From NCBI RefSeq assembly GCF_963921235.1, contig NC_086097.1, forward strand, positions 161,326,001 to 161,390,000: a DNA stretch of 64,000 nt, read 5' to 3'. Under the pieces are notes generated by a model. That model saw nothing but the letters and a program-made list of their open reading frames with translations. It was not told the origin of the DNA and did no database searches. The stretch comes from Mobula hypostoma. Taxonomy: Eukaryota. Both the position numbers and the translations under genes were made by a program. This document shows positions 1,855-49,523 of the stretch, piece after piece (position 1 is the stretch's first letter; each line of letters opens with the position of its first letter).

Positions 1855-2082
1855 TGTGGTAAACCATATATATGTTGTAACTGGGTTACCTGTCTGGACA
1901 CACCCCTCTGCTGACTGCCCCTGTGGCTCCTCCCACAGAACCCTGAATAAAGGTGATTTCGCCTTGCCCCTCACCCTCAGTCCAGGGGCAGACACTCAGC
2001 AAGGAAGTCGTATTGTACAGCGAATAAAAGCCTTTCAGTATTTACCCTACTTCAGTCTTTTGACATTATTAAAGGTGTTTCA
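1855..2082 (+). repeat. 5' LTR of Gypsy-A
   Basis: tgtggtaaacc...ggtgtttca, with AATAAA at 2023. About 13 substitutions plus one 2-bp indel versus the 3' LTR (hand count). Confidence 0.95.
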
Positions 2083-2107
2083 ATTTTATTCACTGTAATT
2101 TTAAAGC

Positions 2108-3316
2108 ATGGAACGCGCCCTGAGACCGGACAAGTTACATCTCAATCTGCAATCACCTGAAGCTGGAAACGCTGTTGAGCTCTGGCTGGCCTGCTTCGAA
2201 TCGTACCTAGAGGAGATTAAAGCGACCGACCCCGTAGCGAAGCGCAGAGTTCTCCTCTCCAGGGTCAGTCCACGTGTCTATTCGCTGATCAGAGAGCAGC
2301 CAAACTACGACGGCGCGATGAGCGAACTCAAAGGACAATACATGCAGCCGATAAACAGCGTCTACGAGCGACATTGTTTAGCGACTCGAAACCAGCAGCC
2401 CAGGGAATCAAGTGCCGAGTTCATTCAGGCCCTACGGATGCTCGTGCGGGCCTGCAGTTGCCAATAACTGACAGCAATACAGCATGCAGAGCTCCTAGTG
2501 AGAGACACCTTCGTCACGGGGACCAGGTCAGTGTACGTGTGCCGGTGGCTGTTGGAAAAAGCCGATCTTACCTTAAGTTCGGTGATCGAGCTGGCCAACA
2601 CGCTGGAGGCCTCTCTGCATAACTCTGAGCCTCTCCAGGTACGCAATCCCCCGATGGCCTCGTGGGCGCCGCAGACCCCACAACCCACTGGTGAATCGAC
2701 CACGGCTGCTGCCAGTCACGAGTCCCAGCAACCCGCCAGCGAATCGACCTCGGTTGCTGCCAGTCGCGAGTCCGCGAAGTGCTACTTCTGTGGACTCGAG
2801 AAGCACCCCCGGAAACGCTGCCCGGCCCGAGAAGCTACCCGCTGCAGCTGCAGAAAGAAGGGCCACTTCGCCAAGGTCTGTAAGTCCAAACCGCAAGCGG
2901 GATCGAGCAGCGCCGCGTGCAAGACATGGGGGTCACCATCTTGCCTGCCGCCATCTTCCCTGCACGCCGCCACCACTTGTGAGACATGGGGGCGGCCATC
3001 TTGGTTGGCACCCCCTCCCACCGCCTACGACCAACGGGTGCTCATGGGGCACCCCACCGTGCCGGACCAAGACAGCGACTCAACCCTGGCCTCCGTGACT
3101 CTCGACCAAAGCGCCCCGCACCAGCTTGCAAGGTCAATGATGGACATCCTGGTGGAGGGGCGCAGGACAATCTGCCTGTTTGACACAGGCAGCACTGAGA
3201 GTTTTATCCACCCGGACATGGTGCAGCATTGCGGACTTGTGATACAGCCGGTAAGTCAGAGGGTCACCATGGCTCTGGGTCGCATACAACAGACATCGGG
3301 GGGGGGGGTTGTGTAG
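2108..3316 (+). pseudogene. gag: Gypsy-A gag plus aspartic protease (premature stop at about 2467)
   Basis: ORFs 2108-2467 and 2498-3316 share a frame. Double zinc knuckle CYFCG..HPRKRC / CSCRKKGHFAKVC and protease motif LFDTGS. Confidence 0.9.
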
Positions 3317-3639
3317 CGACGCTAGTGGTGTAGGGCACAGAATATCGAGACTTTACGTTACTGGTCATGCCTCAACTGTGTGCCCCTGTGCTATTGGGGC
3401 TCGACTTCCAGAGCCACCTGAAAAGCGTGACAATGAAGTATGATGGGCCCCTCCCACCAATCACTGTCGTAAATCCCCAGTTTTGTAGGGATACGTCACA
3501 TACCCTGCTATTGACCACACACACACACCGACCCGCACATCCCACCCAACACCACGCCAATTGCCGTACTACTGACACCACTTGCGGCCTCTCCACCCTC
3601 AGGATCCCTCCCCACCGCTGTTCGCCAACCTGACCCCCG

Positions 3640-5888
3640 ACTGTAAACGTGTGGCAGCTAAAAGCAGGAGGTACAGCACGGGGGACAGAGCCTTCATTAA
3701 GTTAGAGGTGTAACGGCTGCTCAGGGAGGGGGTCATTGAGGCAAGCACAAGTCCTTGGAGGGCGCAGGTGGTCGTTGTTCAGAACGAGAAGAAGAATAGG
3801 ATGGTCATGGACTATAGCCAGACCATCAATAGGTTCACGCAGCTCGCAGCGTACCCTCTACCCTGCATCGCGGATATGGTCAATCAGATAGCACAGTACA
3901 AGGTGTACTCGACCATAGCCCTAAAATCCGCTTACCATCAGCTCCCCATCCGCCCGGTGGACCGCCCTTACACTGCCTTTGAGGCGGACGGCAGGTTTTA
4001 TCAATTCCTGCGCGTCCCCTTCGGTGTCACGAATGGTGTATCTGTCTTCCAGAGGGCAATGGACCGGATGGTGGACCAGTGCCAAATGAAGGCCACGTTC
4101 CCATCTCTGGATAACATCACCATCTGCGGTCACAACCAGCAGGATCATGACAACAACCTCCAAAAATTTCTCCAAGAAGCCAAAGCTTTCAACCTCACCT
4201 ATAACAAGGACAAACGTGTGTTCAGAACCACCCGACTTGCTATCCTTGGGTGTGTTGTGGAGAATGGAGTCTTTGGCCCTGACCCTGGTCCTGACCGTAT
4301 GCACCCCTTGTTGGAACTCCCTCCTCCCAACACCCTCAGAGCCCTCAAAAGGTGCCTGGGCTTCTTTTCATATTACGCCCAATGGGTCTCTAATTACGCA
4401 GACAAGGCCCGCCCCTGGTCAGGTCCACCACATTCCCCCTCTCAGCCGAGGCCCGTGCGGCCTTCAGCCGCATAAAAGGGAACATTGCCAAAGTAGCAAT
4501 GCATGCGGTGGATGAGTCCATTCCCTTCCAAGTGGAGAGTGACGTCTCCAACTTCGCACTGGCTGCTACCCTCAACCAGGCAGAAAGACCAGTGGCGTTC
4601 TTCTCCCGTACTCTTCAAGGCCCTGAACTTCGGCACTCCGCAGTGGAGAAAGAGGCCCAGGCCATAGTGGAAGCTATAAGGCACTGGAGGCACTATCTTG
4701 CCGGCAAAAGGTTCACCCTGCTGACTGACCAGCGCTCAGTTGCATTCACGTTTAATAATCAGCAGCGGGGCAAGTACAAAAATGATAAAATTCTAAGGTG
4801 GAGAATCGAACTCTCCACCTACAACTATGACATCATGTACAGGCCTGGGAAGCTCAATGAGCCCTCCGATGCCCTGTCCCGGGGAACGTGCGCCAGCGCA
4901 CAGATCGACTGGCTATATGCCCTACATGTAGATCTTTGCCACCTGGGGGGCCACCCGACTTTTCCACTTTATGAAAGCCCGGTACCTGCCTTACTCCCTT
5001 GAGGAGATCAGGACGATGACCAGGGACTGCCAAGTCTGCGCAGAGTGCAAACTGCACTTCTACCGACCCGAAAAGGCACAACTCATCAAGGCCACCCGTC
5101 CCTTTGAGCGACTGAGTGTTGACTTTAAGGGCCCCCTTCCCTCCACTGACCGCAATGTGTACTTTCTTAACGTTATTGACGAGTACCCGCGGTTCCCCTT
5201 CGCCATCCCCTGCCCCGACACCACTACCATGTCAGTTATAAATGCCCTGCGCAAGCTCTTCACTCTGTTCGGATACCCATGCTATATCCACAGTGACAGA
5301 GGGTCCTCTTTTATAAGTGACGAGCTGCGCCAATACCTGCTGGCTAGGGGAATTGCAACTAGTAGGACCACGAGCTATAATCCCCGGGGGAATGGACAGG
5401 TGGAGAAGGAGAATGGCACAGTGTGGAAAGCCACACTCCTATCCCTCAGGTCAAAGGGACTGCCGGTCTCCCGCTGGCAGGAGGTCCTTCCCGAGGCACT
5501 CCACTCCACCCGCTCCCTGCTATGCACGTCCACCGATGCCACCCCTAATGAGCAACTCTCTTCTTTTCCCAGAAAGTCGACCACTGGGACCACCCTACCA
5601 ACTTGGCTGATGTCCCCGGGGCCAGTGCTGCTCTGGAAACATGCAAGGAGCAATAAATACTCCCCGATAATCGAGAGGGTTCACTTACTTCATGCGAACT
5701 CCCAGCATGCCTATGTGGTTTTACCTGATGGGCGGGAGGACACGGTCTCCATCCTCGACCTGGCGCCCGCAGGAGCTCCGGGCCCCTACCCTGAACGCTC
5801 CGTGGTGACTATTAACCCCGTATCCACCGATATATATATATACCCACCAGACACCGCACACTCCAAGCCCTACACAGACACCCCATGA
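3640..5888 (+). pseudogene. pol: Gypsy-A pol (RT, RNase H, integrase), frameshifted
   Basis: RT motifs VPFGVTNG and SLDN (degenerate YLDD), RNase H motifs VESDVS and EKEAQAI, integrase motifs SVDFKGP, HSDRG and GNGQVEK. Confidence 0.93.
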
Positions 5889-6097
5889 CACTCCCATACC
5901 GGGCGCGATGCACACGCACGAGGGATTACCGACGCCTAACCTCAAGTCAGGCCGTCGCCGATGCAATCACCACCGGTGCTACGTAGATCACAGCGATGGA
6001 CTCGGCCGTCTGATAGACTTGACCTGTAAATATACTTGTTTTAAATATTGTCAGTCACTTCACCCAGCGGGCTCTTTTAAAAAAAAGGAGGGGTGAA

Positions 6098-10932: not shown

Positions 10933-13296
10933 GCGGAAGTTAGAGAAGTCAATGTTCATGCCATCAGGTTGGAGGCTACCCAGACGGAATATAAGGTGTT
11001 GTTCCTCCAACCTGAGTGTGGCTTCATCTTTACAGTAGAGGAGGCCGTGGATAGACATGTCAGAATGGGAATGGGATGTGGAATTAAAATGTGTGGCCAC
11101 TGGGAGATCCTGCTTTCTCTGGCGGACAGAGCGTAGGTATTCAGCAAAGCGGTCTCCCAGTCTGCGTCGGGTCTCGCTAATATATAAAAGGCCACATCAG
11201 GAGCACCGGACGCAGTATATCACCCCAGCTGACTCACAGGTGAAGTGTTGCCTCACCTGGAAGGACTGTTTGGGGCCCTGAATGGTGGTAAGGGAGGAAG
11301 TGTAAGGGCATGTGTAGCACTTGTTCCGCTTACACGGATAAGTGCCAGGAGGGAGAACAGTGGGGAGGGATGGGGGGGACGAATGGACAAGGGAGTCGCG
11401 TAGGAAGCGATCCCTGCGGAATGCAGAGAGAGGTGGGGAGGGAAAGATGTACTTAGTGGTGGGATCCCATTGGAGGTGGCGGAAGTTACGGAGAATAATG
11501 TGTTGGACCCAGAGGCTGGTGGGGTGGTAGGTGAGGACCAGGGGAACCCTATTCCTAGTGGGGTGGCGGGAAGATGGAGTGAGAGCAGATGTACGTGAAA
11601 TGGGGGAGATGCGTTTAAGAGCAGAGTTGATAGTGGAGGAAGGGAAGCCCCTTTCTTTAAAAAAGGAAGACATCTCCCTCGTCCTAGAATGAAAAGCCTC
11701 ATCCTGAGAGCAGATGCGGCGGAGACGGAGGAATTGCGAGAAGGGGATGGCGTTTTTTCAAGAGACAGGGTGAGAAGAGGAATAGTCCAGATAGCTGTGA
11801 AAGTCAGTAGGCTTATAGTAGACATCAGTGGATAAGCTGTCTCCGGAGACAGAGACAGAAAGATCTAGAAAGGGGAGGGAGGTGTCAGAAATGGACCAGG
11901 TAAACTTGAGGGCAGGGTGAAAGTTGGAGGCAAAGCTAATAAAGTCAACGAGCTCAGCATGCGTGCAGGAAGCAGCGCCAATGCAGTCGTCGATGTAGCG
12001 AAGGAAAAGTGGGGGACAGATACCAGAATAGGCACGGAACATAGATTGTTCCACAAACCCAACAAAAAGGCAGGCATAGCTAGGACCCATACGGGTGCCC
12101 ATAACTACACCTTTAGTTTGGAGGAAGTGGGAGGAGCCAAAGGAGAAATTATTAAGAGTAAGGACTAATTCCGCTAGACGGAGCAGAGTGGTGGTAGAGG
12201 GGAACTGATTAGGTCTGGAATCCAAAAAGAAGCGGAGAGCTTTGAGACCTTCCTGATGGGGGATGGAAGTATATAGGGATTGGACATCCATGGTGAAAAT
12301 AAAGTGGTGGGGGCCAGGGAACTTAAAATCATCGAAAAGTTTAAGAGCGTGAGAAGTGTCACGAACATAGGTAGGAAGGGATTGAACAAGGGGGGATAAA
12401 ACCGTATCGAGGTATGCAGAAACAAGTTCGGTGGGGCAGGAGCAAGTTGAGACAATAGGTCTGCCTGGACAGGCAGGTTTGTGGATCTTGGGTGGGAGGT
12501 AGAAATGGGAAGTGCAAGGTGTGGGAACTATAAGGTTGGTAGCAGTGGATGGGAGATCCCCTGAGCGGATAAAGTCGGTGATGGTGTGGGAGACAATGGC
12601 CTGGTGCTCCTTAGTGGGGTCACGATCGAGGGGTAGATAAGAGGAGGTATCCGCGAGTTGTCGCTGTGCCTCGGCAAGGTAGAGGTCAGTATGCCAGACT
12701 ACAACAGCACCCCCCTTATCGGCGGGTTTAATAATAAGGTTAGGATTAGTGCGGAGGGAGTGGAGAGCAGAGCGTTCCGAAGGAATGAGGTTGGAATGGG
12801 GACAAGGTGCGGTGAAGTCGAGACGGTTGATGTCCCGTCGGCAGTTAGCGATAAAGAGATCCAGAGCAGGCAGAAGACCAGAGTGGGGTGTCCATGAAGA
12901 AGAGGAGGGTTGAAGACGGGAGAAGGGGTCATCGGTGGGGGTGGAAGAGTCCTTGCCGAAGAAGTAGGCTCGGAGACGGAGACAGCAGAAGAAAAGTTCC
13001 GCATCATGGCGAACACGGAACTCACTGAGGTGTGGGCGAAGGGGGACAAAGGTGAGGCCCTTACTGAGAACAGAGCGTTCTGCCTCCGACAGTTGAAGGT
13101 CGGAGGGGATGGTAAAGACCCGGCACGGATGAGAGCTGGGATCAGAGGGGGGAGGGGGGAGGCCGGGGGTGTCAGTGGAGAGGGGATGATTGGGGTGAGA
13201 GGAAGATGGAGCCTCTGAGGGCCCAGGAGCTGACGGTGGGATCTGAGGGAGACGGAGTTGCAGAGTGGTGGTGGGGGAAGGGGAGACGGGAGTCAC
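10933..13296 (-). pseudogene. Penelope RT plus GIY-YIG endonuclease, disrupted
   Basis: ORF 11758-13296 has LSKGLTFVP, IIKPADKGGAVVV, MDVQSLYTSIPH, GVVMGTRMGPSYA and RYIDD. Downstream frames give GVIYCVRCS...YI.ETRRRL. Confidence 0.93.
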
Positions 13297-14137
13297 AATA
13301 GCAGCACATAAAGACCCGGCCTGGAGTTCAAGGCTGGAGTCGCAGTTGGTGGTTGCACAATCACTTTAAATGTGTCCATTACTTACTCCAGTTGGCTTTA
13401 GGATTCGTTTCCGAGCCTCTCAATTTCGACCTTCTGAGGATCCCAGGTACTCACATTTTATTGACTCTGCCTCTCGCCACTTCTCCCGTCAAGCTCTGAA
13501 GGCGACTTTGTCCGCCATGAGGAGTTACTTGGTGTCCCTATCCCAGACCCTTCCACACCTTCGGGACACTTTCTTCGCCGTCTGTAATGGTCCTACCCGT
13601 TATTTCATCCTCCGTCGGATTCATGCCTGCAATTGCCGTTTATTTGACTTTGTCAAGTTAGGCAAAGATCGCAAGATCCTATATCTACGGACTCCAGAGC
13701 CTGCTGGCCATGAAATTAGCAGGCATGAACTTTAGATTGCCTCTGCCATTGATCTCGCCGGCTCCAACACCTCAGGGCATATTCAAAACCCAGAAGTTTA
13801 ACCCCACTAGGAATAGGGTTCCCCTGGTCCTCACCTACCACCCCACCAGCCTCCAGGTCCAACATATTATTCTCCGTAACTTCCGCCACCTCCAACGGGA
13901 TCCCACCACTAAGCACATCTTTCCCTCCCCCCCCCCTGCATTCCGCAGGGATCGCTCCCTACGCGACTCCCTTGTCCATTCGTCCCCCCGATCCTCCCCA
14001 CTGATCTCCCTCCTGGCACTTATCCGTGTAAGCGGAACAAGTGCTACACATGCCCTTACACTTCCTCCCTTACCACCATTCAGGGCCCCAAACAGTCCTT
14101 CCAGGTGAGGTGACACTTCACCTGTGAGTCGGCTGGG

Positions 14138-28990: not shown

Positions 28991-31348
28991 GTTTTACTTG
29001 TAGCAGAAACCACTGCTAGCTCATAAGCTTCTTGCAGTTCTTTCCTCATGTCAGGCACATACTTGAGATACAACTTCTGCAGCAAGTCTTCACTGCTAGT
29101 TCCAAGACAGGTCCATGGGTAATCTCACTTTGCATCCGAACATCAGATAGTTTGGCGAGTAGCCAACAGCTTCATTCTGTGTAAAGTTGTAGCAGTGTAC
29201 CAAATGCCCAATATGCTGACTTCACTTGTTCTTCTTGTTGGCATCCAGGGTTTCAAGCCTGTCTAGCAATGTCCAATTGAACCTTTCAGGCTGAGTGTGA
29301 TATGACGTGGTCCTTGATTTCTTGATTCCATGCATAAGCCGACTCTCAAAATCCCTTCCCTGATCACTGTGTATCCTTACTGAGAAGGCATAATGAACAA
29401 AATACTTCTCCTGTAATAGCTTGGCAACTGTAGATGCTCTCTGATCCTTTGTGGGGAAGGCTGGAGCATATGTGTGTAGTGATCAGTAATGACCAAAGCA
29501 TTTGCAGCATTACTGGAATCAGGCTCTATGGAGAGGAAATCCATACAAACTAAATCAAGTGGCCCCACGCTCTGTAAATGAGATAATGGAGCAATTCTCT
29601 TAGACAGCGTCTCCCTTCAAATACATCGGATGCACAACTTAAAATACTCTTCAACCTCAGGCTTCATTCGGGACCAATAGAGCTGATCTCAGACTTATCT
29701 GTAGGTCTTGTCAAACCCAAAATGACCTGAGTCATCATGAAGTGACTTTAGTACAACCATCTATTATTTCTCAGGCAAAATCAAGGAACGTCGAGGTCTG
29801 TCTGGATGAGACTTGACCATATACAAAACTTCGTTCCTCAACTTCAGTTTGTCCCATTCCCTCATCAATAGGGGTATGGTAGGGTGTTTTGACTTCTCCA
29901 CTTGGGCTATATCCCCTTTGACAACAGATGACCAAAAGGTACCCATGTAAGGGTCATCTCACTGGACTGCTGCCAATTCTGCAGGACTCATGGCAGGCAA
30001 CTGCTTCGTATCCAGAGCGGTCAAGTTGCAATATAATTGTGGAATGGCTAGACTAGAAGCTCCCAAATGATCCAAAGCTCTATCATGCCACTGCTTTACC
30101 TCTGATTTCCCCTCTTGGAAAACTGAAACATTGCTTTAACAGCAGAGGCAGGAATGCCCTCCCACCCTCCGTCCCTTTCCAGCACCTCATGCGAATGTCA
30201 GGACAACACATCCACATCAATGTTCCGACTTCCTGGCCGATATTTAAGGCAGAAATCATAAGCAGACAGCACCGCCAACCAGCGATGACCTGTGGCATCC
30301 AACTTCCCTGAGGTCAGGATATAAGTCGGTTAATTGTTATCAGTCCTCACCTCGAACTTGGCACCATATAGATAGCCACTTAACTTATCCACCACACCCC
30401 ATTTCAATGCCAGAAACTAATTTCTGCCTCAAGTAATTTTGTTCAGATGGTGATAGACTTCGGCTGACGAAAGCAACGGGTCTCAACCCTTTACCTTGGT
30501 CCTGATATAGAACACTGCCTAAGCCCTCATAGCTGGCGTCGGTATGCAGTAATACGGCAACTGGGGGCTTGCAAAGGCCAGCACAGGTACTTTAGCCAGC
30601 AATTCTTGCAACAGCTGAAAGGTTTTTTCACATTCTATATCCCATCTTTCCCCAAAAAGGCTTCGAAGGCCTAAGATAAACCTTGCCTTCTTCTCCTTTC
30701 ATTCTCCTCCCTTTCTTCCTCCATGGCGTGTAACCACAAAGAAGCTGATTCAAAGGATGGCTTGCTCTGGAGTAGTCGTTCACAAATCTCTGGTAGTATC
30801 CACAGAATCCAAGGACTGAGCATAGGGTATTCACAGTCTTTGGCCTTGGCCATGTGGTCACTATCACTATTTTGGACGGATCCGTAGCCACTTTATCTTG
30901 TGAGACTATGTGTCCAACATAGCTGACTGACATCTTACAAAACTGGCACTTCCAGTGACAGTTTTAGCACTTCAAGCTTTCAGGTGGTCTAGCACTTTCA
31001 TTCTCCCGCTCCTCCAGTGTGGACCTGAACACTATGAGATCATCCAAGTACACCATACCTCAAGCAATTTTATATCCCCAACAGTCTTCTCCATGACACG
31101 TTGAAAAGTAGCCAGTGCTCCTGATATGCCCTGGGGCATTCTTTCAAACTGAAAGAATCCAAGTGGACATATGAATGCCGCCTTCTCTTTACCAGCTTCA
31201 CTCATGGGTGTCTGATAATACCCACTCCTTAGATCCAACACACTGAACCATTTTGCTCCACTCAGGCAGGCAAGAGTATCCTTGATCCACTGAATAATAT
31301 ATTGGTCTGGGACTACGTCTATTCCTTGCCTGATAATCCACATACAGT

Positions 31349-32329
31349 GTGTGGGTGGGAGTATTTGCTCATAGGGTGCGTGTGAAGCATCTAGTACAGT
31401 GGTGTTGTAGTGTACTGGTGCTTGTAGTTTGTGCATGCTGCATGCTACATAGTGCTCTCTGCTTACAGCTATTGCTGCTGGCTCGCCTTCTTAATAGAGG
31501 GTTAAAAAAGGAGCCGAGTGTGTAAGCCTCCTCCTGCCAGTACAGAGCCTCTCCAACACCAAGACTCCTGCAGTGCCTCTTTGGGGCCACACTCAGAAAC
31601 TGGGAATCTTACGGCCCCAGGCTAAATCGTAGGGGATCTCGGAGCAGCAGTGGGCCCCAGAGACGTGGCGTGCAGGCCCACCACTGTGTGGACATGCCCT
31701 GGCGCCCGTCAACCACTGTCCCAGCTATGGGCAAATAGCCCCACTGCCTTGTGGTAAGTCTGTTGAGACAAGGCTAAGGGAGCACACCCTGACAGAAAAG
31801 CAATGTGCTGGCGGCGCGCCATAGGCGTGCCTTAACAGACCAAGGACCCGGCAGCCTCCTGTAGCCAAGATGTGGGATCGGTCGTCCTGGGATCACCCTT
31901 GCCACCGGGATTTACCTCATTATGGTGAAGCTAGTGTTACTGGGGATGGCGCACCCCCTGTGGCACTTTAAAATCTTCCTTGCGAAGGTCTCCACCTCTG
32001 ACCATGGTGAACAATACCTGGACCTTACATATTAATGCTTTAAGGAAGTGCAAGATTAGACCCGAGGACCTGGAGGATGTTGCTACTGACCGTACCACGT
32101 GGCAACAACCGTGTAGGGACGGAGTTTGTATTCTGGAGATGGAAAGAACAACCAGAAGACAGCAGAAGAGAGACAGGAGAAATGCAGCCATGGTTTCCAC
32201 CACTACCACATATATGTGTCCCACCTGCAATAGAGCTTGTGGGTTCAGGATAGGACTGTATAGTCATCAACGATCTCACCGTTAAAGGAGTGGACGTCGT
32301 CATCAGATTTCGATGGACAACCAAAGAAG
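31349..32329 (+). mobile_element. Internally deleted (bipartite) RTE-clade LINE derivative
   Basis: 14-bp TSD aatccacatacagt (31335-31348 / 32330-32343), RTE C-terminus DRTTW...CPTCNRACG.RIGLYSHQRSH, (aag)n tail and no RT. Confidence 0.85.
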
Positions 32330-32591
32330 AATCCACATACAGTATATTCAAACCTTCCCATCCTTGTTCCTCACTAACACTGTGGGCGGCGCATAGCAAC
32401 ATCATGACTCAGTGATAATTCCAGCTTCCTTCAGTTTCAGCAGGCACAGCCAAACGAGATCCGCCTCTGAGGGTGCTAACTGTCAAGACCTCTCTCTGAA
32501 TGGGGTGTCATCCATCACTCTAGTGAGGTGAGTACTCTTGGAGCAACCCACATCAAACTCGTCAAACTCATCATTCCTCAATATTTTCAAG

Positions 32592-33291
32592 TGTAGCCCC
32601 CAGTAAGCCCCAGGCTCGTTCAACTCGCCTCCGTCTCGGGGAAGCAGCCCTCGGCCCTGCCAAACTGGGTAATCAAGTTTGTGTGGATGCTGTGTGATTT
32701 ATCCCACTCTGCCAAATAACAGACAATACACCATATGCGATTAAATGATTACAATTTATAGATATTACTGGAACTATGTAGTTAATAGAGATAAAGTAAA
32801 AGGTGCCAAACATATCAAAGTTCAACCCCTTCATGCACAATAGTTGGAGCTCAAGTAACGGGGTCCTCTTTCCACCATTCGATCCCCTCCGACCCCCTCG
32901 ATCCGCCGCCTGGGACCAATCACGGCGGTCGACCAGACGCTCCACACGAGTCTGTCTTCATCTCCTCTCCTCGCTGAAGACCCTGGGCCTCGGACTCCCA
33001 CTCGGGGTCCATCCCGTCGGCCAGCTTACAGCATCATGTCCACTCTCTCTGTCCCCATCGCGCCTTCTGCCCCAAAGCCCGCACAACACAATAGCTTACA
33101 GACACACGAGAAAGAATAACATCTATCCCAATTGGTTCATTCCTCCTCATATCAATAATATAACCCAAACAAGCAGAGAGAGAGGAAACTCCTTATCGCA
33201 GTTATTTCAGAAAAGCCATTTTAATTATAACATAACAAAGAAGCCATTTTGATTAGCTTATGCAGTAACATAAAAGAAGAAACCCCTTACA
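32592..33291 (-). repeat. Solo LTR of a different Gypsy family
   Basis: TG...CA ends (tgtagcccc...ccccttaca) and perfect 4-bp TSD CAAG. Gypsy-B pol is contiguous across it. Strand inferred by analogy. Confidence 0.88.
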
Positions 33292-34279
33292 CAAGCTTGA
33301 ACATCTTCTCAGTTATTTAGCTTTTCCATTCCTCGGGTACTGGGGAGTCACCAAAGTTGAATGAATTTACTGTTAACTTTCCCAATCCAGGAGACTGTCT
33401 CTGGTTTTCTTGCCAGAAAATTAGAAATTACCCTCACAGGAAAAGATCCCAAGTCTAAAAGTAACCTCTCTCTCCGAGGTGTTGCTGACAATCACCGTCA
33501 TCCTGTTTGCGTGGAAAGCCGAAGGTTCCTGCAGTTCAAGTATCACCAGCACTCCAGCAGGCAAGCATGACTCTTCTTCATGATCCTCCAGAGCATCCAC
33601 CGGCACAGCCTCGGCATCTGACATTCTGGGGAATTTGGGGCTCCTGCCACTCTAGCTACTTCCCCAAGACATAACACGACAGGTTTGGTCTGGGTGTACC
33701 ACACAGTTCATCGTTTATGCTTATCAACCTGGTTGGGAGGAACTGGCAGCTTCTCAAAAACCACTCTGAACACCTTGTGAATTGGACAAGGTTTTCAAAA
33801 AATTCTTTCCATTTCTGTCCTTGCATTCTCCCATGAACCTTCTCACATGGGAGTATTTGCTCCCACAATAATGGAAGCTTCACCTTTTTCAGCCGGATTG
33901 GATAGACCCACCCTATTATACCAAGGGTCTCAGCTACTCCAACATCTGCTTCTGAAAACCCCAGTTTCAACGAGGTAACCACCATATAGGTAATCATCAG
34001 AACCCAGGCCCCAAATTTCTAGGGCACTAAGTGGTGCCAATGGTAAATGCGTCAAATACCGGTTGTAAAAAGATCTGCAGAGTAGAATACCTGAGAACCT
34101 GTGTCAAGTATGACTCTAGTATAAATACCCTCAATCCATATGGATACTTCCAAGCTTGGTTCCACTAAACCTTCAGGAATAGGGTTTTGCACTTTAGTGT
34201 TTCCCTTGACACATTGATTGGAATGTGTTCTCTCCCTTACTGGGTCCCTCCGAAGTTTCCTGATTTCCTTTTCTGTTTA

Positions 34280-37274: not shown

Positions 37275-38927
37275 ATGACACTGTCTCAGGCAAAAACCCA
37301 AGCTCAGTCTGGACTACAACCTTTGCCAGATTTATGTGGTAGTTTGTGCAATGCTGGAACCAAAGGGCCCAGAAAGTCACGTCGGCAATGGCGGGTAGAG
37401 AAACATGCTAGTACACCTTTACCTTGTGAAATGCCTGAAAATGCTGTGTCAGATGTTAAGTGGGAAGTGCCAGAAAACATCACCATATTACAACAGTCTG
37501 ATCCTTTGTTAAAGTCTCTGTTAACCAAGGTCTTAACCTCTGCTAATTACACCGCCCAGGTAGGTGGTTCAGTGTATGTCCTTCACAACGGCATCCTTTA
37601 TCAGGGAGAGGAGCCAGGCAACAGGAGGTTAGTGGTGCCAAGTAGTTGCAGGTCACTTATACTACATCTTGCACATACCATTCCCTGGGCAGGACACTTA
37701 GGTCACCATAAGACATACCTCAAGCTGGCCTCTCGGTTCTTTTGGCCTTCAATGTACACTGATGTGCAGACATATTGCAAAACGTGCCCAGAGTGTCAAA
37801 AAACCAGTGCTGTCCGTAAAGCAGACCGAGCACCCCTCCAATCCATGCCAGTGATTACCACCCCATTTAAGCGGATTGCAATGGACATTGTGGGTCCCCT
37901 GGAAAAAAGCTCAGCAGGATATCAGTACATTCTTGTTGTATGTGATTATGCCACACGATTCCCTGAAGCTTTTCCTCTCCGGTCGGTAACCACTCCAAAA
38001 CTGATCAGTGCTCTTGTCCACCTCTTTTCTCACGTAGGCATCCCGGAGGAAATCCTGACCGACCAGAGAACCAACTTTACATCTCGCCTAATGAGCCAGC
38101 TGCATAAGGAGTTGGGCATAACCGCTATCAGGACATCTCCTTATCACCCAGAGGCAGATGGCCTGGTGGAGAGGTTCAACCAAACACTCAAGAGGATACT
38201 CGTAAAGTTTGTATCTGATATAGGGAAGGATTGGGATAAGTGGTTACCCTTTCTGCTCTTTGCCTACGGGGAAGTGCCTCAGGTGTCTACTGGATTCTCC
38301 CCTTTCGAGCTACTCTATAGTTGGCCAGTCCAGCAGTCCCTGGATCTGCTGAAACAGAACTGGAAGAAGGTGGCAGCTAATCCTATAAAGAGGCAAGGTG
38401 TTGTACAATATGTCCTTCAGATGAGGGACCGGTTGGAGCGGTACCGAGAGGAGACCAGACTCAACCTCCTGGAGGCCCAGAAGACTCAAAAGCGATGGTA
38501 TGATCAGCAGGCACACCAGCGTGAGTTCAAACCAGGTCAAAGAGTCTTGTTGCTCCTGCCCTCCTTCTCCAGCAAGCTGCTGGTTAAGTGGCAGGGACCT
38601 TTTGAGGTTATAAGGAGGATGGGGCCTACAACATATGAGATCCTGCATCTGGAGAACGGGAAACAAAAGCAAACTTGCCATGTGAACCTCTTGAAAGCCT
38701 GGGAGGAAAGAAGCAGCCCTCCTTCCATCTCCTCATTACTGGCACACCGGGTGATTGAGGAAGATGACTCTGAAGGTGTAGTGGAAGGCTGGAAACAGCC
38801 TGCCAAGGTGAATCTCTCTCACCTGGATGGTAAGAAGCCAGTTGAATTGCAAGTCATATTCGACATTTTCCCTCAGTTGTTCACACAGAAACCAGGCCAT
38901 ACAGATGTGTTGCAGCATGCCATCTGA
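37275..38927 (+). CDS. pol: Integrase ORF of the Gmr1-like element (HHCC, DDE core, GPY/F)
   Basis: AHTIPWAGHLG...CPECQ, AMDIVGP, LTDQ.TNF, GLVERFN, WQGPFEV and HVNLLK. 550 codons open. Confidence 0.85.
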   Translation: MTLSQAKTQAQSGLQPLPDLCGSLCNAGTKGPRKSRRQWRVEKHASTPLPCEMPENAVSDVKWEVPENITILQQSDPLLKSLLTKVLTSANYTAQVGGSVYVLHNGILYQGEEPGNRRLVVPSSCRSLILHLAHTIPWAGHLGHHKTYLKLASRFFWPSMYTDVQTYCKTCPECQKTSAVRKADRAPLQSMPVITTPFKRIAMDIVGPLEKSSAGYQYILVVCDYATRFPEAFPLRSVTTPKLISALVHLFSHVGIPEEILTDQRTNFTSRLMSQLHKELGITAIRTSPYHPEADGLVERFNQTLKRILVKFVSDIGKDWDKWLPFLLFAYGEVPQVSTGFSPFELLYSWPVQQSLDLLKQNWKKVAANPIKRQGVVQYVLQMRDRLERYREETRLNLLEAQKTQKRWYDQQAHQREFKPGQRVLLLLPSFSSKLLVKWQGPFEVIRRMGPTTYEILHLENGKQKQTCHVNLLKAWEERSSPPSISSLLAHRVIEEDDSEGVVEGWKQPAKVNLSHLDGKKPVELQVIFDIFPQLFTQKPGHTDVLQHAI

Positions 38928-38929
38928 GT

Positions 38930-40180
38930 CAAACCAGGTCAGAGTCCAGTACAGCAGGCATGCTACCGAGCACCAGAACGTCTGGTGAAGGCGTTGAAGG
39001 AGGAGGTCTGCTTGATGTTGGAGCTGGGAGTCATCGAACTGTCTGAAAGTGAGTGGAGTAGCCCTATTGTCATTGTGCCGAAGAAGGATGGAAATCTTTG
39101 CATTTGCATTGACTTTAGGAAACTGAATGCCATCTCATTTTTCAATGCCTACCCGATGCCCTGGATTGAGGACCTGTTGGAGAGCCAGTCCCAGCCCCTC
39201 ACTGCATTCAGGACCCCTCTAGGCCTCTTTCAGTTCACGGTGACGCCCTTTGGCTTGCGTGGTGCCCCAGCCACATTCCAGAAGGCTTATAGGCAGAGTG
39301 CTGCCAGGTTGTGAGGTCTGCAGCACAGCCTATTTGGATGATGTGGTCATTTTTAGCCTGACCTGGGAGGAACATCTGGAGCACCTTCGTCGAGTCCTAG
39401 GTGCAATCAATGTGGCAGGACTTACATTCAACCTGCAGAAATGTGAGTGGGCCAGGCAGGAAACCCAGTACCTGGGGTATCAGTTAGGGAGAGGAGAAGT
39501 CCGGCCTCGGGTGGACTTCAGGTTGAGGCCATTTTGAACAGCCCCAGGCCCCGTACCAAGACCCAGGTCCGGTCTTTTCTTGGCCTAGTGGCTGGTACCG
39601 ACAATTCATCCCTCACTTTTCAACCCTGGCAGCCCCATTGACTAACCTCACCTGCAAGTTGGCCCGTAATCTTGTGGAATGGAGTGAGGAATGTGAAAGT
39701 GCTTTCCAGGCCCTGAAGGAGAAATTATGCTCTTCCCCTGTGTTGCAGAGTTCTGACTTTGAACGCCGCTTCCTGGTGGATGCCTCAGGTGTGGGCATTG
39801 GGGCAGTACCGGCTCAGGGAGAGCCAGGTGAGGAACGTCCTATGTTATATCTCAGCAGGAAACTTCTGCCCTGTGAAACCCGGTACTCCACAATCGAGAA
39901 GGAGTGTCTGGCAATCAAGTGGGCGTTGGACAGCCCCAGGTACTACCTTCTTGGGAGGGAGTTTGACCTTCAGACGGACCACAGAGCCCTGACCTGGATC
40001 CAGACAATGAAGGACCGGAATGCCAGGGTGACTAGGTGGTACCTGGAACTTCAACCTTTCAGGTTCTGTGTGCGGCACAAAGCAGGCAAGGAGAACATCA
40101 CAGCGGACGTTCTGTCAAGACTGCCAAACATTGCCGCTGCAGGAGAGGAGGGTGGTAGTGTGACAAGGGCCCGTCACTGA
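38930..40180 (+). pseudogene. pol: RT and RNase H of the Gmr1-like element, frameshifted
   Basis: WSSPIVIVPKKDG, PFGL.GAPATF, AYLDDVVI, VDAS, EKECLAI and TDHRAL. Confidence 0.9.
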
Positions 40181-43952: not shown

Positions 43953-44371
43953 GTCTGAAGAGGTTTTTCGTGTCTTTTTCCCTGGGGGCATAAACAATAT
44001 ATTTGTTTGCTCTCCATGCTATGGCCTTATTAATGTGTTAATATTTATTTCTTCGCATACGTAGCTATAGAAGTTTTTACAGTCGGTTTTTATGAACCTT
44101 GGCAGATTAATTTCATATTCTGGTTCCTCATTCTCTTTGAAAATCTTGAAATTCTTTCATTGAATTCTGAATTTTTCTTATCCTCAGGCTTATTATTCAT
44201 TTTGGTAATATTATTAGACTTTTCTTTTAATCTAATGTTCTTCTCAGCTACAGTTGGATCACTTTCCTGACTGGCTTTTTGTTCTGTAAAGATATAAAAG
44301 CTCTACTATGCAGCCAGACTTTATACTGTAGATGCCAATTGATCAATGTGCCAATTAACCCATTATCAAAC

Positions 44372-45047
44372 CAAGAACTCCCACCCCACTGTCCCAGTGC
44401 CAGCTGAGGAACTCCTTACCCACTGTCTCACTGCCAGCCGAGGAGCTCCCTCCCCACTGGTCCCAGTGCCAGCCAAGGAACTCCCTTCCCACTGTCCTAG
44501 TGCCAGCCCAAGAACTCCCTCCCCGCTGTCCCAGTGCCAGCCCAAGAACTCCCTCCTCACTGTCCCAGTGCCAGCTGAGGAACTCCCTTCTCCCCCACTG
44601 TCCCAGTGCCAGCCCAAGAACTCCCTCCCCACTGTCCCAGTGCCAGCCCAAGAACTCCCTCCTCACTGTCCCAGTGCCAGCCAAGGAACTCCCTCCTCAC
44701 TGTCCCAGTGCCAGCTGAGGAACTCCCTTCTCCCCCACTGTCCCAGTGCCAGCCCAAGAACTCCCTCCTCACTGTCCCAGTGCCAGCCAAGGAACTCCCT
44801 CCTCACTGTCCCAATGCCAGCCGAGGAACTCCCTCCTTACTGTCCTAGTGCTAGCCCAAGAACTCCCTCCCCACTGTCCCAGTGCCAGCCCAAGAACTCC
44901 CTTCTCCCCCACTGTCCCAGTGCCAGCTGAGGAACTCCCTTTGCACTATCCAAGTGCCAGCCCAAGAACTCCTTCAGCACCATCCCAATGCCAGCCCAGA
45001 AATTCCCTCAGCACTGTCCCAGTGCCAGTCCAGAAACTCCTTCAGTA
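44372..45047. repeat. Minisatellite, unit about 34 bp, about 20 copies
   Basis: Unit ccactgtcccagtgccagcccaagaactccctcc, with interspersed gctgaggaactcccttctccc variants and no unique spacers. Confidence 0.95.
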
Positions 45048-45529
45048 CTGTGTTGATACCAACATGAGCTTCCCTTGGCATTTTTGGAAGTGCCATTTAC
45101 TGGGGAGTGTCAAATTAATGAACTAACTGAGAAATGGGTTATTGCTCTAAATGTGCCATAAACTATATATTAATTCATTAAATGTTAACCATTCCTTGTC
45201 TACTGTTAAACTTTTGAATGTAGTTTCCTCATCTGTAATAGTCAGCTGGTGTTGATAACAATTTACTTCATTTGGATTTCAGGGCAATAATAAGAGTTAT
45301 GAATCTTTGGAAGTTTATACCCTGAGGGTCTATAGAAGCTCAGATATTGATTGCATTTAAAAATAAGACAAAGAATTTTGGATCTTATTTGGATATTCAA
45401 ATCACGTGGATATGAGGTAGGCAAGTAATATTGAGCTAGCAGCTCAGCCATGACTTAATGATGGTAGAGCAGGTTGGTCTTGTTTCTTTTGTTCTTCTGT
45501 TTTAGCTTGAACTACATCACTTATTATCT

Positions 45530-47675: not shown

Positions 47676-48479
47676 CAAAATTTGCAGATCTCAGTAGTTG
47701 CTATCAGTTCTCACATTCCACAGCTGCAATACTGCAATATGTCGTGTCTAATTTTGTCTGAATTCCAATCTATTTTGAAGATGCAGTTTTGATTAAATGC
47801 TTGAAATTGAATTATAATAAAGTCACAGGCTAAAGATCTTCTTATTGAGAACTGCAATGTACACGCTGTGCACGAACATATTAGAAAAAATAATAAAACG
47901 GCAACGGAACTGACAGAGAACAAGACATCATCTGAAAGAAAAAAATTTTGTGATCGCTGTGGGTGGGAGGACTGACCTAAAAAGTGTCCAGCGTATCAGA
48001 AAATGTGCAACAACTGTGGTAAGAGTAATCATTTTTCACGCTGTTGCAGAAGTAGAAAGGAAATAAAACACATAAATGCAGTACTTGAAAATGAACGCGA
48101 GGAGTTTTACATAGATGTGTTTTGTGAAAACAAACAAAGTAAGAATGACTTCACTATGCAAGTGAACCAAAACATTATTCTGTTTAAATTGGATACTGGA
48201 GCACAAGTAAATATTCTTGCAGAATCTGAGTTTAATGCATTGAAGCCAAGACCAAAGTTACATCAGACAAATATAAAAGTGACTGGGTATTCTGATGCAG
48301 ACATTCCAGTTAAAGGAACACGTGTGGCGAAAGTATCACACAAAAATATTGTGCACACGCTTTCATTTGTGGTGGTGCTGAAGAATGTACAGTCAATACT
48401 GGGTCTATCTGCCTGTGAGAAACTGAATTTGGTGAAAAGAGTTTTAGTCTTGGATAGTGATACAGAGTCGGAATACAGT

Positions 48480-48649
48480 GGACAGAGGCCAAACTTGCCA
48501 GTACAGTACAAACTGATCTGAAGCCAAAGAGTGACAAGAATCAGGATCCAACTGAAGAAGTGAAAGCACAAGTGAAGGAATTGAGAAGTTTTATTGAAAT
48601 GATGAAGTCTCAGCATAAAAAAGAGATTACACAGTTAATGAATGAATTA
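48480..48649 (+). pseudogene. SH3KBP1: Captured fragment resembling the SH3KBP1/CIN85 C-terminal coiled coil
   Basis: Translates, with one frameshift near 48505, to GQRPNLPV..QTDLKPKSDKNQDPTEEVKAQVKELRSFIEMMKSQHKKEITQLMNEL. This is collinear with the human CIN85 C-terminus as recalled: GHRANSP....TEGKPK.........[33 protein letters not shown]. Confidence 0.78.
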
Positions 48650-48840
48650 CGATTTCTTCTTAAAGACCTCAAGAAAGAGCCAACTTCGGAGTTTCAATTA
48701 ACTGATGCAGACCAGACAAAACATGAAAATAACAATGAAACACAAGAACTTGTGTGAACCACTTAGAAGGTCTACTCGTGTTCGTAAACCCCAGAGAGAC
48801 TGATAGAGACATGTTAAATTATGCATTTGTTTTGATTAAT

Positions 48841-49337
48841 GGAAAGATGTCAACAAAATAGAGAGAGTACAGAGAAGATTTACTAGAATGTTACCTGGAT
48901 TTCAGCACCTGAGTTACAGAGGAAGGTTGAATAAGTTAAGTCTTTATTCTTTGGAGCGTAGAAGGTTGAGGGGGGGACTTGATAGAGGTATTTAAAACTA
49001 TGAGGGGGATAGATAGAGTTGACGTGGATAGGCTTTTTCCATTGAGAGTAGGGGAGATTCAAACAAGAGGACATGAGTTGAAAGTTAGGGGGCAAAAGTT
49101 TAGGGGTAACACGAGGGGGAACTTCTTTACTCAGAGAGTGGTGGCTGTGTGGAACAAGCTTCCAGTAGAAGTGGTAGAGGCAGGTTCAATATTGTCATTT
49201 AAAGGTATATGGACAGTAAAGGAATGGAGGGTTATGGGCTGAGTGCAGGTCAGTGGGACTAGCTGAGAGTAAGCGTTCGGTACGGACTAGAAGGGCCGAG
49301 ATGGTCTGTTTCCGTGCTGTAATTGTTATATGGTTAT
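48841..49337 (+). mobile_element. CR1 3' end inserted in the Gypsy-C 3' UTR
   Basis: ORF 48979-49242 is a CR1 C-terminus. Tail ttatatggttat. Confidence 0.9.
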
Positions 49338-49376
49338 GTATGTTGCTAATTGTCTTTCTTTTTAAGGAAAGGAAGA

Positions 49377-49523
49377 TGTGGTGATATCATGTGTCATGTG
49401 ACAGATCGAGAAGCCTGTATGTTAGACATGGTTGCTGTTTGCTGTTAAATAAAAGTTCTAGTTATGTTCTTCCAGAATATGTGTTTTTATGAGTAACCCA
49501 CGGTATGTATAAAGTACACAACA
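49377..49523 (+). repeat. Short 3' LTR (147 bp) of Gypsy-C
   Basis: tgtggtg...cacaaca inverted ends, internal AATAAA, directly after the PPT. No 5' partner in the window. Confidence 0.78.

Follow-up and report, generated by a model that had tools for sequence, protein, structure and literature searches.

The window analyzed here, a 64,000-nucleotide stretch of the Mobula hypostoma genome (G000:C1:161326001-161390000), contains an LTR element, of which the 3′ two thirds remain, at positions 47818 to 49523, with all of its parts on the forward strand. The 3′ half of gag comes first (47818 to 48152), with two CCHC-type zinc knuckles and 85 to 92% identity to other copies of the family from 47818/47822 onward. 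The knuckles gave only a weak Pfam match (zf-CCHC, E = 0.31), and in translation the first of them is interrupted by a stop near 47973. An aspartic protease (PR) with a DTG motif follows, together with a linker between PR and reverse transcriptase (RT) that ends in DSDTESEYS (48153 to 48479; Pfam gag-asp_proteas, PF13975, E = 2.7e-6). As the original prediction stated, knuckles and protease run directly into the foreign segment; they continue in frame into the peptide GQRPNLPVQY, and L131, a copy of the parent element, aligns with the window up to 48480.

At that point the element passes into a captured piece of spliced SH3KBP1/CIN85 mRNA (48480 to 48649), identified by protein matches and by alignment to the host's own exons. 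The cargo occupies the place of the parental RT, RNase H, and integrase; the prediction that RT, RNase H, and the integrase core are absent was borne out, with no match to any of them within the window. Next come 13 nt (48649 to 48661), recognized from the junction contexts as an inverted copy of parental sequence lying ahead of the rejoining point, and the integrase C-terminal tail with the 3′ UTR (KDLKK...RRSTRVRKP...ETC stop; 48662 to 48841), 92% identical to positions 4013 to 4192 of L131. A polypurine tract (PPT; 49364 to 49376), the same tract that precedes the 3′ LTR of family copies, leads into a TG...CA 3′ LTR of 147 bp (49377 to 49523), which we aligned to the 199-bp LTR of L023. The pol tail, PPT, and LTR had all been predicted and are present, but the 3′ region is split by a later 498-bp insertion (48842 to 49339), and the LTR is about 50 bp short, given that family LTRs measure approximately 185 to 200 bp. 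The insertion is the 3′ end of a LINE that only this copy carries, the other 29 loci compared being free of it; it resembles other repeats inside the window and is presumably CR1-like, judging by its motifs.

The window copy also lacks the 5′ LTR, the primer binding site (PBS), and the first ~0.8 kb of the element, including the start of gag. A frameshift had been placed near 48505; it exists and is private to this copy, but it lies near 48510, where 38 other copies have a different length. Two more private frameshifts fall in the integrase tail (near 48750 and 48790), and all three are absent from most siblings. This copy belongs to a non-autonomous ~2.07-kb Ty3/Gypsy subfamily and is dead, having lost its 5′ LTR and gag start, acquired a stop in a knuckle and private frameshifts, and shed ~50 bp of LTR. 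The window is otherwise LINE-rich, with segments richer in G+C and CpG at 2001 to 6000, 12001 to 14000, 30001 to 34000, and 38001 to 40000, and it has a tandem array of ~18 copies of 34/38-bp units at 44359 to 45084.

The cargo corresponds to host residues 590 to 646, the first part of the C-terminal coiled coil. It matched the human SH3KBP1 coiled-coil structures 5ABS/2N64 (E = 8e-7) and cartilaginous-fish SH3KBP1 at 76 to 88% identity; Pfam gave no useful match to it (best E = 0.009). SH3KBP1 had been expected to score above CD2AP, and 15 of the 17 protein matches were indeed SH3KBP1 by name or by their SH3 domains, none was named CD2AP, and the remaining two were element-derived chimeras. 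At the nucleotide level the cargo is identical to the genome's own SH3KBP1 exons at 168 of 171 positions. The host gene lies on C18 and retains its introns; the translation of its longest 3′ exon is identical to protein P0002, which marks the genome as a ray's. Two of its exons are joined in the window at 48618|48619, and the 1,087-bp intron between them (G000:C18:80906641|80907729, GT..AG) is located at K|K-E-I; the intron that the original prediction placed there is real. Its precise absence from the window copy indicates that the source of the cargo was a spliced mRNA. Another locus, L046 (G000:C2:30664721-30664834), showed a 58% match to an SH3KBP1 exon; our guess is that it may represent the paralogue CD2AP.

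The predicted spread of a non-autonomous chimera as a family was also confirmed. A 20-nt pattern spanning the 5′ junction of the window form occurred at 44 places in the genome, against none for a control pattern, and the junction-to-junction stretch gave at least 40 matches at 90 to 96% (40 of 740 candidates scored). Complete siblings of the window form are ~2.07 kb long. Family copies have paired TG...CA LTRs and the PPT, of which the window copy keeps only the PPT and 3′ LTR, and their PBS is complementary to a tRNA-Leu(CAG) gene. Among the 57 copies in which both ends could be located, 34 were flanked by exact 5-bp target site duplications (TSDs) and 13 by duplications with one mismatch. 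The median K2P distance between paired LTRs was 0.10 for the window form (n = 23), 0.09 for a longer SH3KBP1 form (n = 25), and 0.09 for the parent (n = 7), so the three were active together, long ago; all copies examined look decayed, with LTR pairs ~9 to 10% apart.

The autonomous parent that the original prediction proposed to seek is a Ty3/Gypsy element of ~4.2 to 4.4 kb with the same LTRs and the order gag-PR-RT-RNase H-IN. Pfam recovered RVT_1 and then RNase H downstream of PR in L132, and RNase H and then integrase in L135. The parental site matching the cargo junction gave 247 pattern matches, and of 30 loci retrieved with the RT start, 27 were of parent type, without SH3KBP1 cargo. 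Because the parental integrase tail runs on into the PPT and LTR, there is no space for env, and this is not a transducing retrovirus. Four other parent-type loci (L181, L274, L291, and L071) carry no host cargo but have deletions or duplications in their interior. Terminal-repeat retrotransposons in miniature (TRIMs) are very short and have a noncoding interior. The chimeric elements are 2.0 to 2.4 kb long and keep gag-PR, which sets them apart from TRIMs; only L296 (G000:C2:100968138-100971156), a miniature with the layout LTR-PBS-SH3KBP1 piece-tail and without gag, comes near.

The long SH3KBP1 form carries host residues ~540 to 667, with three introns missing. At both of its ends parent and host share 7 to 8 nt of microhomology, namely, GTCATAAA at the RT start and AGAAAGC in the integrase tail. 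The double template switch that had been proposed for the window element is therefore supported at the long form, but the window form has secondary junctions of its own, with almost no microhomology on the 5′ side and an inversion on the 3′ side. The window junctions are later deletions of a longer capture, not original template-switch points. Its 5′ deletion reaches host c.259, with L179, L180, and L184 as intermediates, and its 3′ side combines a deletion with the 13-nt inversion of parent sequence, which is common to the window subfamily and in frame in 40 of 42 copies. A window-type 3′ end is paired with another 5′ end in L276 and L281, pointing to recombination between subfamilies. Residue 540 is E in the captured copies, D in this genome's gene, and E in the Pristis and Hemitrygon proteins, which indicates that the host changed after the capture; this host change also extends the 5′ microhomology. 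We considered a second, independent SH3KBP1 capture (junction at c.59 versus c.105). The 3′ junction and two non-host letters are common to both forms, which fits a single capture followed by recombination with the parent, but the host sequence may have changed instead.

Two further host genes have been captured by the same family. RABEP1, which we reached through the predicted protein P0017, contributed residues ~60 to 172, with one intron of ~9 kb removed and junction microhomologies of 6 to 8 nt (AGAGCT and CAAGGAGA). A search with it matched 150 of 260 candidates scored, one of them a host exon; the host locus lies on the reverse strand at G000:C71:53.165-53.175 Mb (L212 and L219-L220), and elements include L153, L157, L218, and L288. 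An apparent RABEP2-derived class was discarded, since its lower-identity matches proved to be 5′-trimmed RABEP1 pieces joined to the protease start. The third donor is SLU7 (host locus, G000:C21:67580193-67589065; elements L199-L207 and L225-L254), of which three exons are joined and two introns removed, the middle host exon ending at a GC donor. This cargo gave 88 matches, including the host exon. It is lysine-rich, and its protein had no match in the protein atlas or among 1.84 billion representatives; the name SLU7 rests on the exon of the host gene upstream, which matched human SLU7 at E = 9e-17, the cargo itself giving E = 7e-4. RABEP1 occurs alone, in RABEP1-SH3KBP1-RABEP1 arrangements, and in a RABEP1-SH3KBP1-SLU7 form (the triple form) that has also lost the protease.

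The 3′ junction pattern of the long form gave 133 matches. Adding the 44 window-type places, subtracting 3 shared matches, and adding 87 SLU7-bearing copies and 25 fetched RABEP1-SH3KBP1-RABEP1 copies, we count at least about 280 copies that bear SH3KBP1. To this we set a sample of loci picked by the tail pattern alone (the first 30 of 319 exact matches, on contigs C1-C2), of which 22 were chimeric and 8 parent-type; no fourth donor gene appeared among these 30. The same pattern retrieves only 4 of 28 fetched parents, some of which are tailless, versus 86 of 172 chimeras, so it undersamples parents, and chimeras more likely account for about half of the family. The same junctions are present in predicted Hemitrygon proteins and in contigs of sequencing runs from four organisms. 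Two predicted Hemitrygon akajei proteins, P0006 and P0017, are chimera copies annotated as genes with identical junctions, the Hemitrygon layouts being PR-RT start-SH3KBP1 and PR-RABEP1-SH3KBP1-RABEP1. The junction-spanning contigs have low depth and come from runs whose RNA nature is a guess.

We then tallied reading frames across 180 chimeric loci (188 minus 8 duplicates). In their modal state all 19 junction types were in frame with gag-pol; one type had a single copy in the tally, with further copies seen otherwise, and protein searches had supplied most of the copies behind these 19 types. Another six types, taken from the tail-picked sample, were likewise in frame (6/6, translations read by eye). 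L296, in which the cargo lies directly behind the PBS, was kept outside the count. Joins matched for microhomology would be in frame by chance at a rate of 0.38 to 0.48, compared with 0.33; at 0.45, the probability of 19/19 is 2.6e-7, and that of the cargo-blind 6/6 is about 0.008. The alternative frames of every cargo piece hit a stop. The Gag-PR-coiled-coil fusion that had been predicted exists as a natural open frame of 472 amino acids in L002 and 563 amino acids in L034. We consider it probable that the frame has been selected rather than kept by chance.

One A-rich run in gag qualifies this rule. There, 16 of 33 triple-form copies are out of frame, 11 of them with the same length, as are 5 of 24 copies of the RS form. 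In a tree of triple-form copies, which was star-like and nearly unresolved, the out-of-frame ones did not cluster (9 changes; 256 of 500 shuffles were as low). The out-of-frame triple-form copies may be a replicating lineage, which would go against the frame rule, or may reflect recurrent slippage at the run. A 2-nt indel that the RS group appeared to share in gag proved to be an alignment artifact.

Selection was assessed in 178 copies, 2 further likely segmental duplicates having been dropped, with variants tallied column by column. Two sets of near-identical neighbors, L025/L026/L029 (C18:182.5-182.7 Mb) and L036/L037/L102 (C1:168.4 Mb), are probably segmental duplications, and such groups were cut to one copy each beforehand. 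In the cargo, 10 of 37 lineage-shared changes were synonymous, compared with 447 of the 1,834 rare changes (neutral expectation, 0.24; P = 0.70), giving an omega of 0.87 with a lower bound of 0.41; with only 37 shared changes, there is room for weak selection. The shared changes include Q>P, L>R, F>S, and F>C. The controls behaved differently: 11 of 19 shared changes were synonymous in parental RT-RNase H (P = 0.007) and 6 of 9 in integrase (P = 0.008). The same test picked up selection on gag in the long (29/66) and triple (25/53) forms and on the window form's PR (10/15, P = 0.003); for gag it reached no significance in the window form (15/45, P = 0.74) or in the RS group (4/12). The signal in chimeric gag could have been inherited from parents by recombination. 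No stop codon occurred among lineage-shared changes in any region. We thus found no purifying selection of the kind expected of a functional chimeric gene in the captured coding sequence, and the coiled-coil function that the original prediction implied is not supported, as the cargo is neutral at the protein level and the window form has lost the last ~25 host residues. With the cargo neutral and the element genes constrained, it is likely the open frame, not the coiled coil, that was selected.

That host mRNA was captured and that the products spread is, in our judgment, almost certain. Host mRNA would have been co-packaged in the particles, where two microhomology-guided template switches could have carried the reverse transcriptase from the integrase tail to the host mRNA and back to the element near the RT start. 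Enzymes made by the parent would then have copied the chimeras, and recombinants could have arisen where a chimeric RNA shared a particle with parent and sibling RNAs. In-frame forms would out-replicate out-of-frame ones if translation of the RNA to its natural stop helped it in cis, whether through packaging linked to the Gag fusion or through escape from decay, by analogy with what is reported for IAP 1Δ1. As a whole, this account of subfamilies with a replaced pol core, captured by template switching, copied by a helper, and selected for an unbroken frame from Gag to the tail, appears likely to us. Within it, translation in cis is somewhat the better-favored cause over cargo function. On a bolder and rather doubtful reading, the family is an in-frame exon-shuffling machine: its RNA would have to be translated all the way to its own stop to be mobilized, so that only sense, in-frame host fragments were kept, three genes were recombined into Gag fusions, and even the protease was replaced by host helices. 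Such fusions would have been made in the ray germ line for millions of years, possibly as oligomerizing or decoy modules.

The strongest competing idea is that the host helices were useful as protein, the coiled coil on Gag-PR having favored the chimeras by oligomerizing Gag or drawing in endocytic partners. Both SH3KBP1 and RABEP1, the first two cargoes, supplied coiled coils from endocytic adaptors, the two were recombined helix to helix and in frame in 67 of 67 copies, and the smallest SH3KBP1 forms all retain the start of the coiled coil; selection has also been reported in 9 of 24 testable captures (Abrusan 2013). We nevertheless hold this idea to be unlikely in view of the neutral omega and of the replacements listed above, of the spread of a subfamily (44 matches) that lacks the last ~25 host residues, which lie inside the coiled coil, and of a third cargo that is a lysine-rich piece of SLU7. 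Still less probable is an absence of any selection on frame, with purine-rich, codon-structured sequences simply offering in-frame microhomologies and the chimeras spreading by virtue of being short RNAs whose packaging signals are intact. Microhomologies do fall in frame more often than one in three (0.38 to 0.48 versus 0.33), one subfamily often has its gag A-run out of frame, and Ty1 mobilizes defective RNAs in trans (PMC3945221), but neither the 19/19 nor the cargo-blind 6/6 is readily obtained at such rates, and no region has a stop among its lineage-shared changes.

All three donors, SH3KBP1, RABEP1, and SLU7, are conserved genes, as might suit chimeras that hid from small-RNA silencing behind host-like sequence or were kept as regulators of the donor genes. 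Such roles have been proposed for gene-capturing elements of maize (review PMC13317346), and junction-spanning contigs were found in runs guessed to be RNA; because strictly sense, in-frame joins and repeated trimming of the cargo are left unexplained, we give this reading very little credence. A processed pseudogene or DNA-level insertion of SH3KBP1 in one Gypsy copy would share the loss of the intron, as a LINE-made retrocopy also lacks introns, but the cargo is internal coding sequence without poly(A), stands in place of ~2.2 kb of pol, and is bounded on either side by microhomology. That the segment is native to the element, or a genuine host exon, conflicts with the cargo-free parents (27 of the 30 RT-start loci) and with the true gene and its introns on C18. 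This whole group of explanations, to which we assign almost no probability, is refuted. The preferred account remains capture by template switching with selection on the open frame.

These results separate two things in one family: frame selection, which is strong, and selection on the captured protein, which was not detected. In-frame fusions to host domains can accordingly accumulate without benefit from the domain, and for annotation it matters that such chimeras are already filed as protein-coding genes (P0006 and P0017). Gene captures by animal LTR elements are mostly one-off or low-copy, and here hundreds of copies record captures, trims, and recombinations. New in this work are the derivation of the window form, the null model and out-of-sample check of the frame rule, the finding that the cargo is neutral where positive controls show selection, and the caveat of the A-run. 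Our literature search, which had Repbase, Dfam, subscription journals, and supplements outside its scope, found no paper on the ray family.

In retroviral oncogene transduction and in HERV-K/FAM8A1, as in the ray family, host coding sequence from a spliced mRNA is fused to Gag and the product depends on a helper. The ray family differs from both in having no env or sign of infection, no protein-level selection on its cargo, and amplification in the germ line. Gene captures have been cataloged in transposon consensus sequences (Abrusan 2013), and the capture process itself is already known, from LTR-mediated retroposition in animals (Tan et al. 2016, Genome Res, PMC5131818), with vertebrate cases in zebrafish, chicken, and mouse, and from the three-gene capture of Bs1. 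Like the retrocopies of Tan et al., the ray chimeras carry intron-less partial mRNA in place of element ORFs, have microsimilarity at the switch points (median of 6 bp there, 6 to 8 here), include multigene chimeras, and underwent further retroposition as non-autonomous units, as seen in dispersed copies with their own TSDs. Unlike those retrocopies, which as that article presents them mostly occupy a single site or few sites (18 sites for 9 fly retrocopies), they form subfamilies of hundreds of copies, perhaps half of the family, and they have been serially re-deleted and recombined with every junction in frame to gag-pol, a history that differs from the cases in that article.

Maize Bs1 likewise has three transduced host gene segments in one LTR element with a chimeric ORF (review PMC13317346). 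Bs1 is a plant element and is described there as yielding a new chimeric gene, whereas the ray copies look decayed and their cargo is neutral. The mouse IAP 1Δ1 elements resemble the ray family in the removal of the pol core, an in-frame ORF fusing Gag to the tail, and high success (review PMC6466679); as that review describes them, they are plain deletions in an endogenous retrovirus without host cargo, which the ray family carries. Ty1 Gag, for which no cis preference is reported (PMC3945221), is a counterexample to a benefit in cis. The Gag-Pol fusion of IAP 1Δ1 is reported to act in cis (PMC6466679), a result that comes from experiment, whereas the cis effect in rays is drawn from the frames of the junctions, which support a requirement for translation in cis among non-autonomous LTR elements beyond the rodent IAPs.
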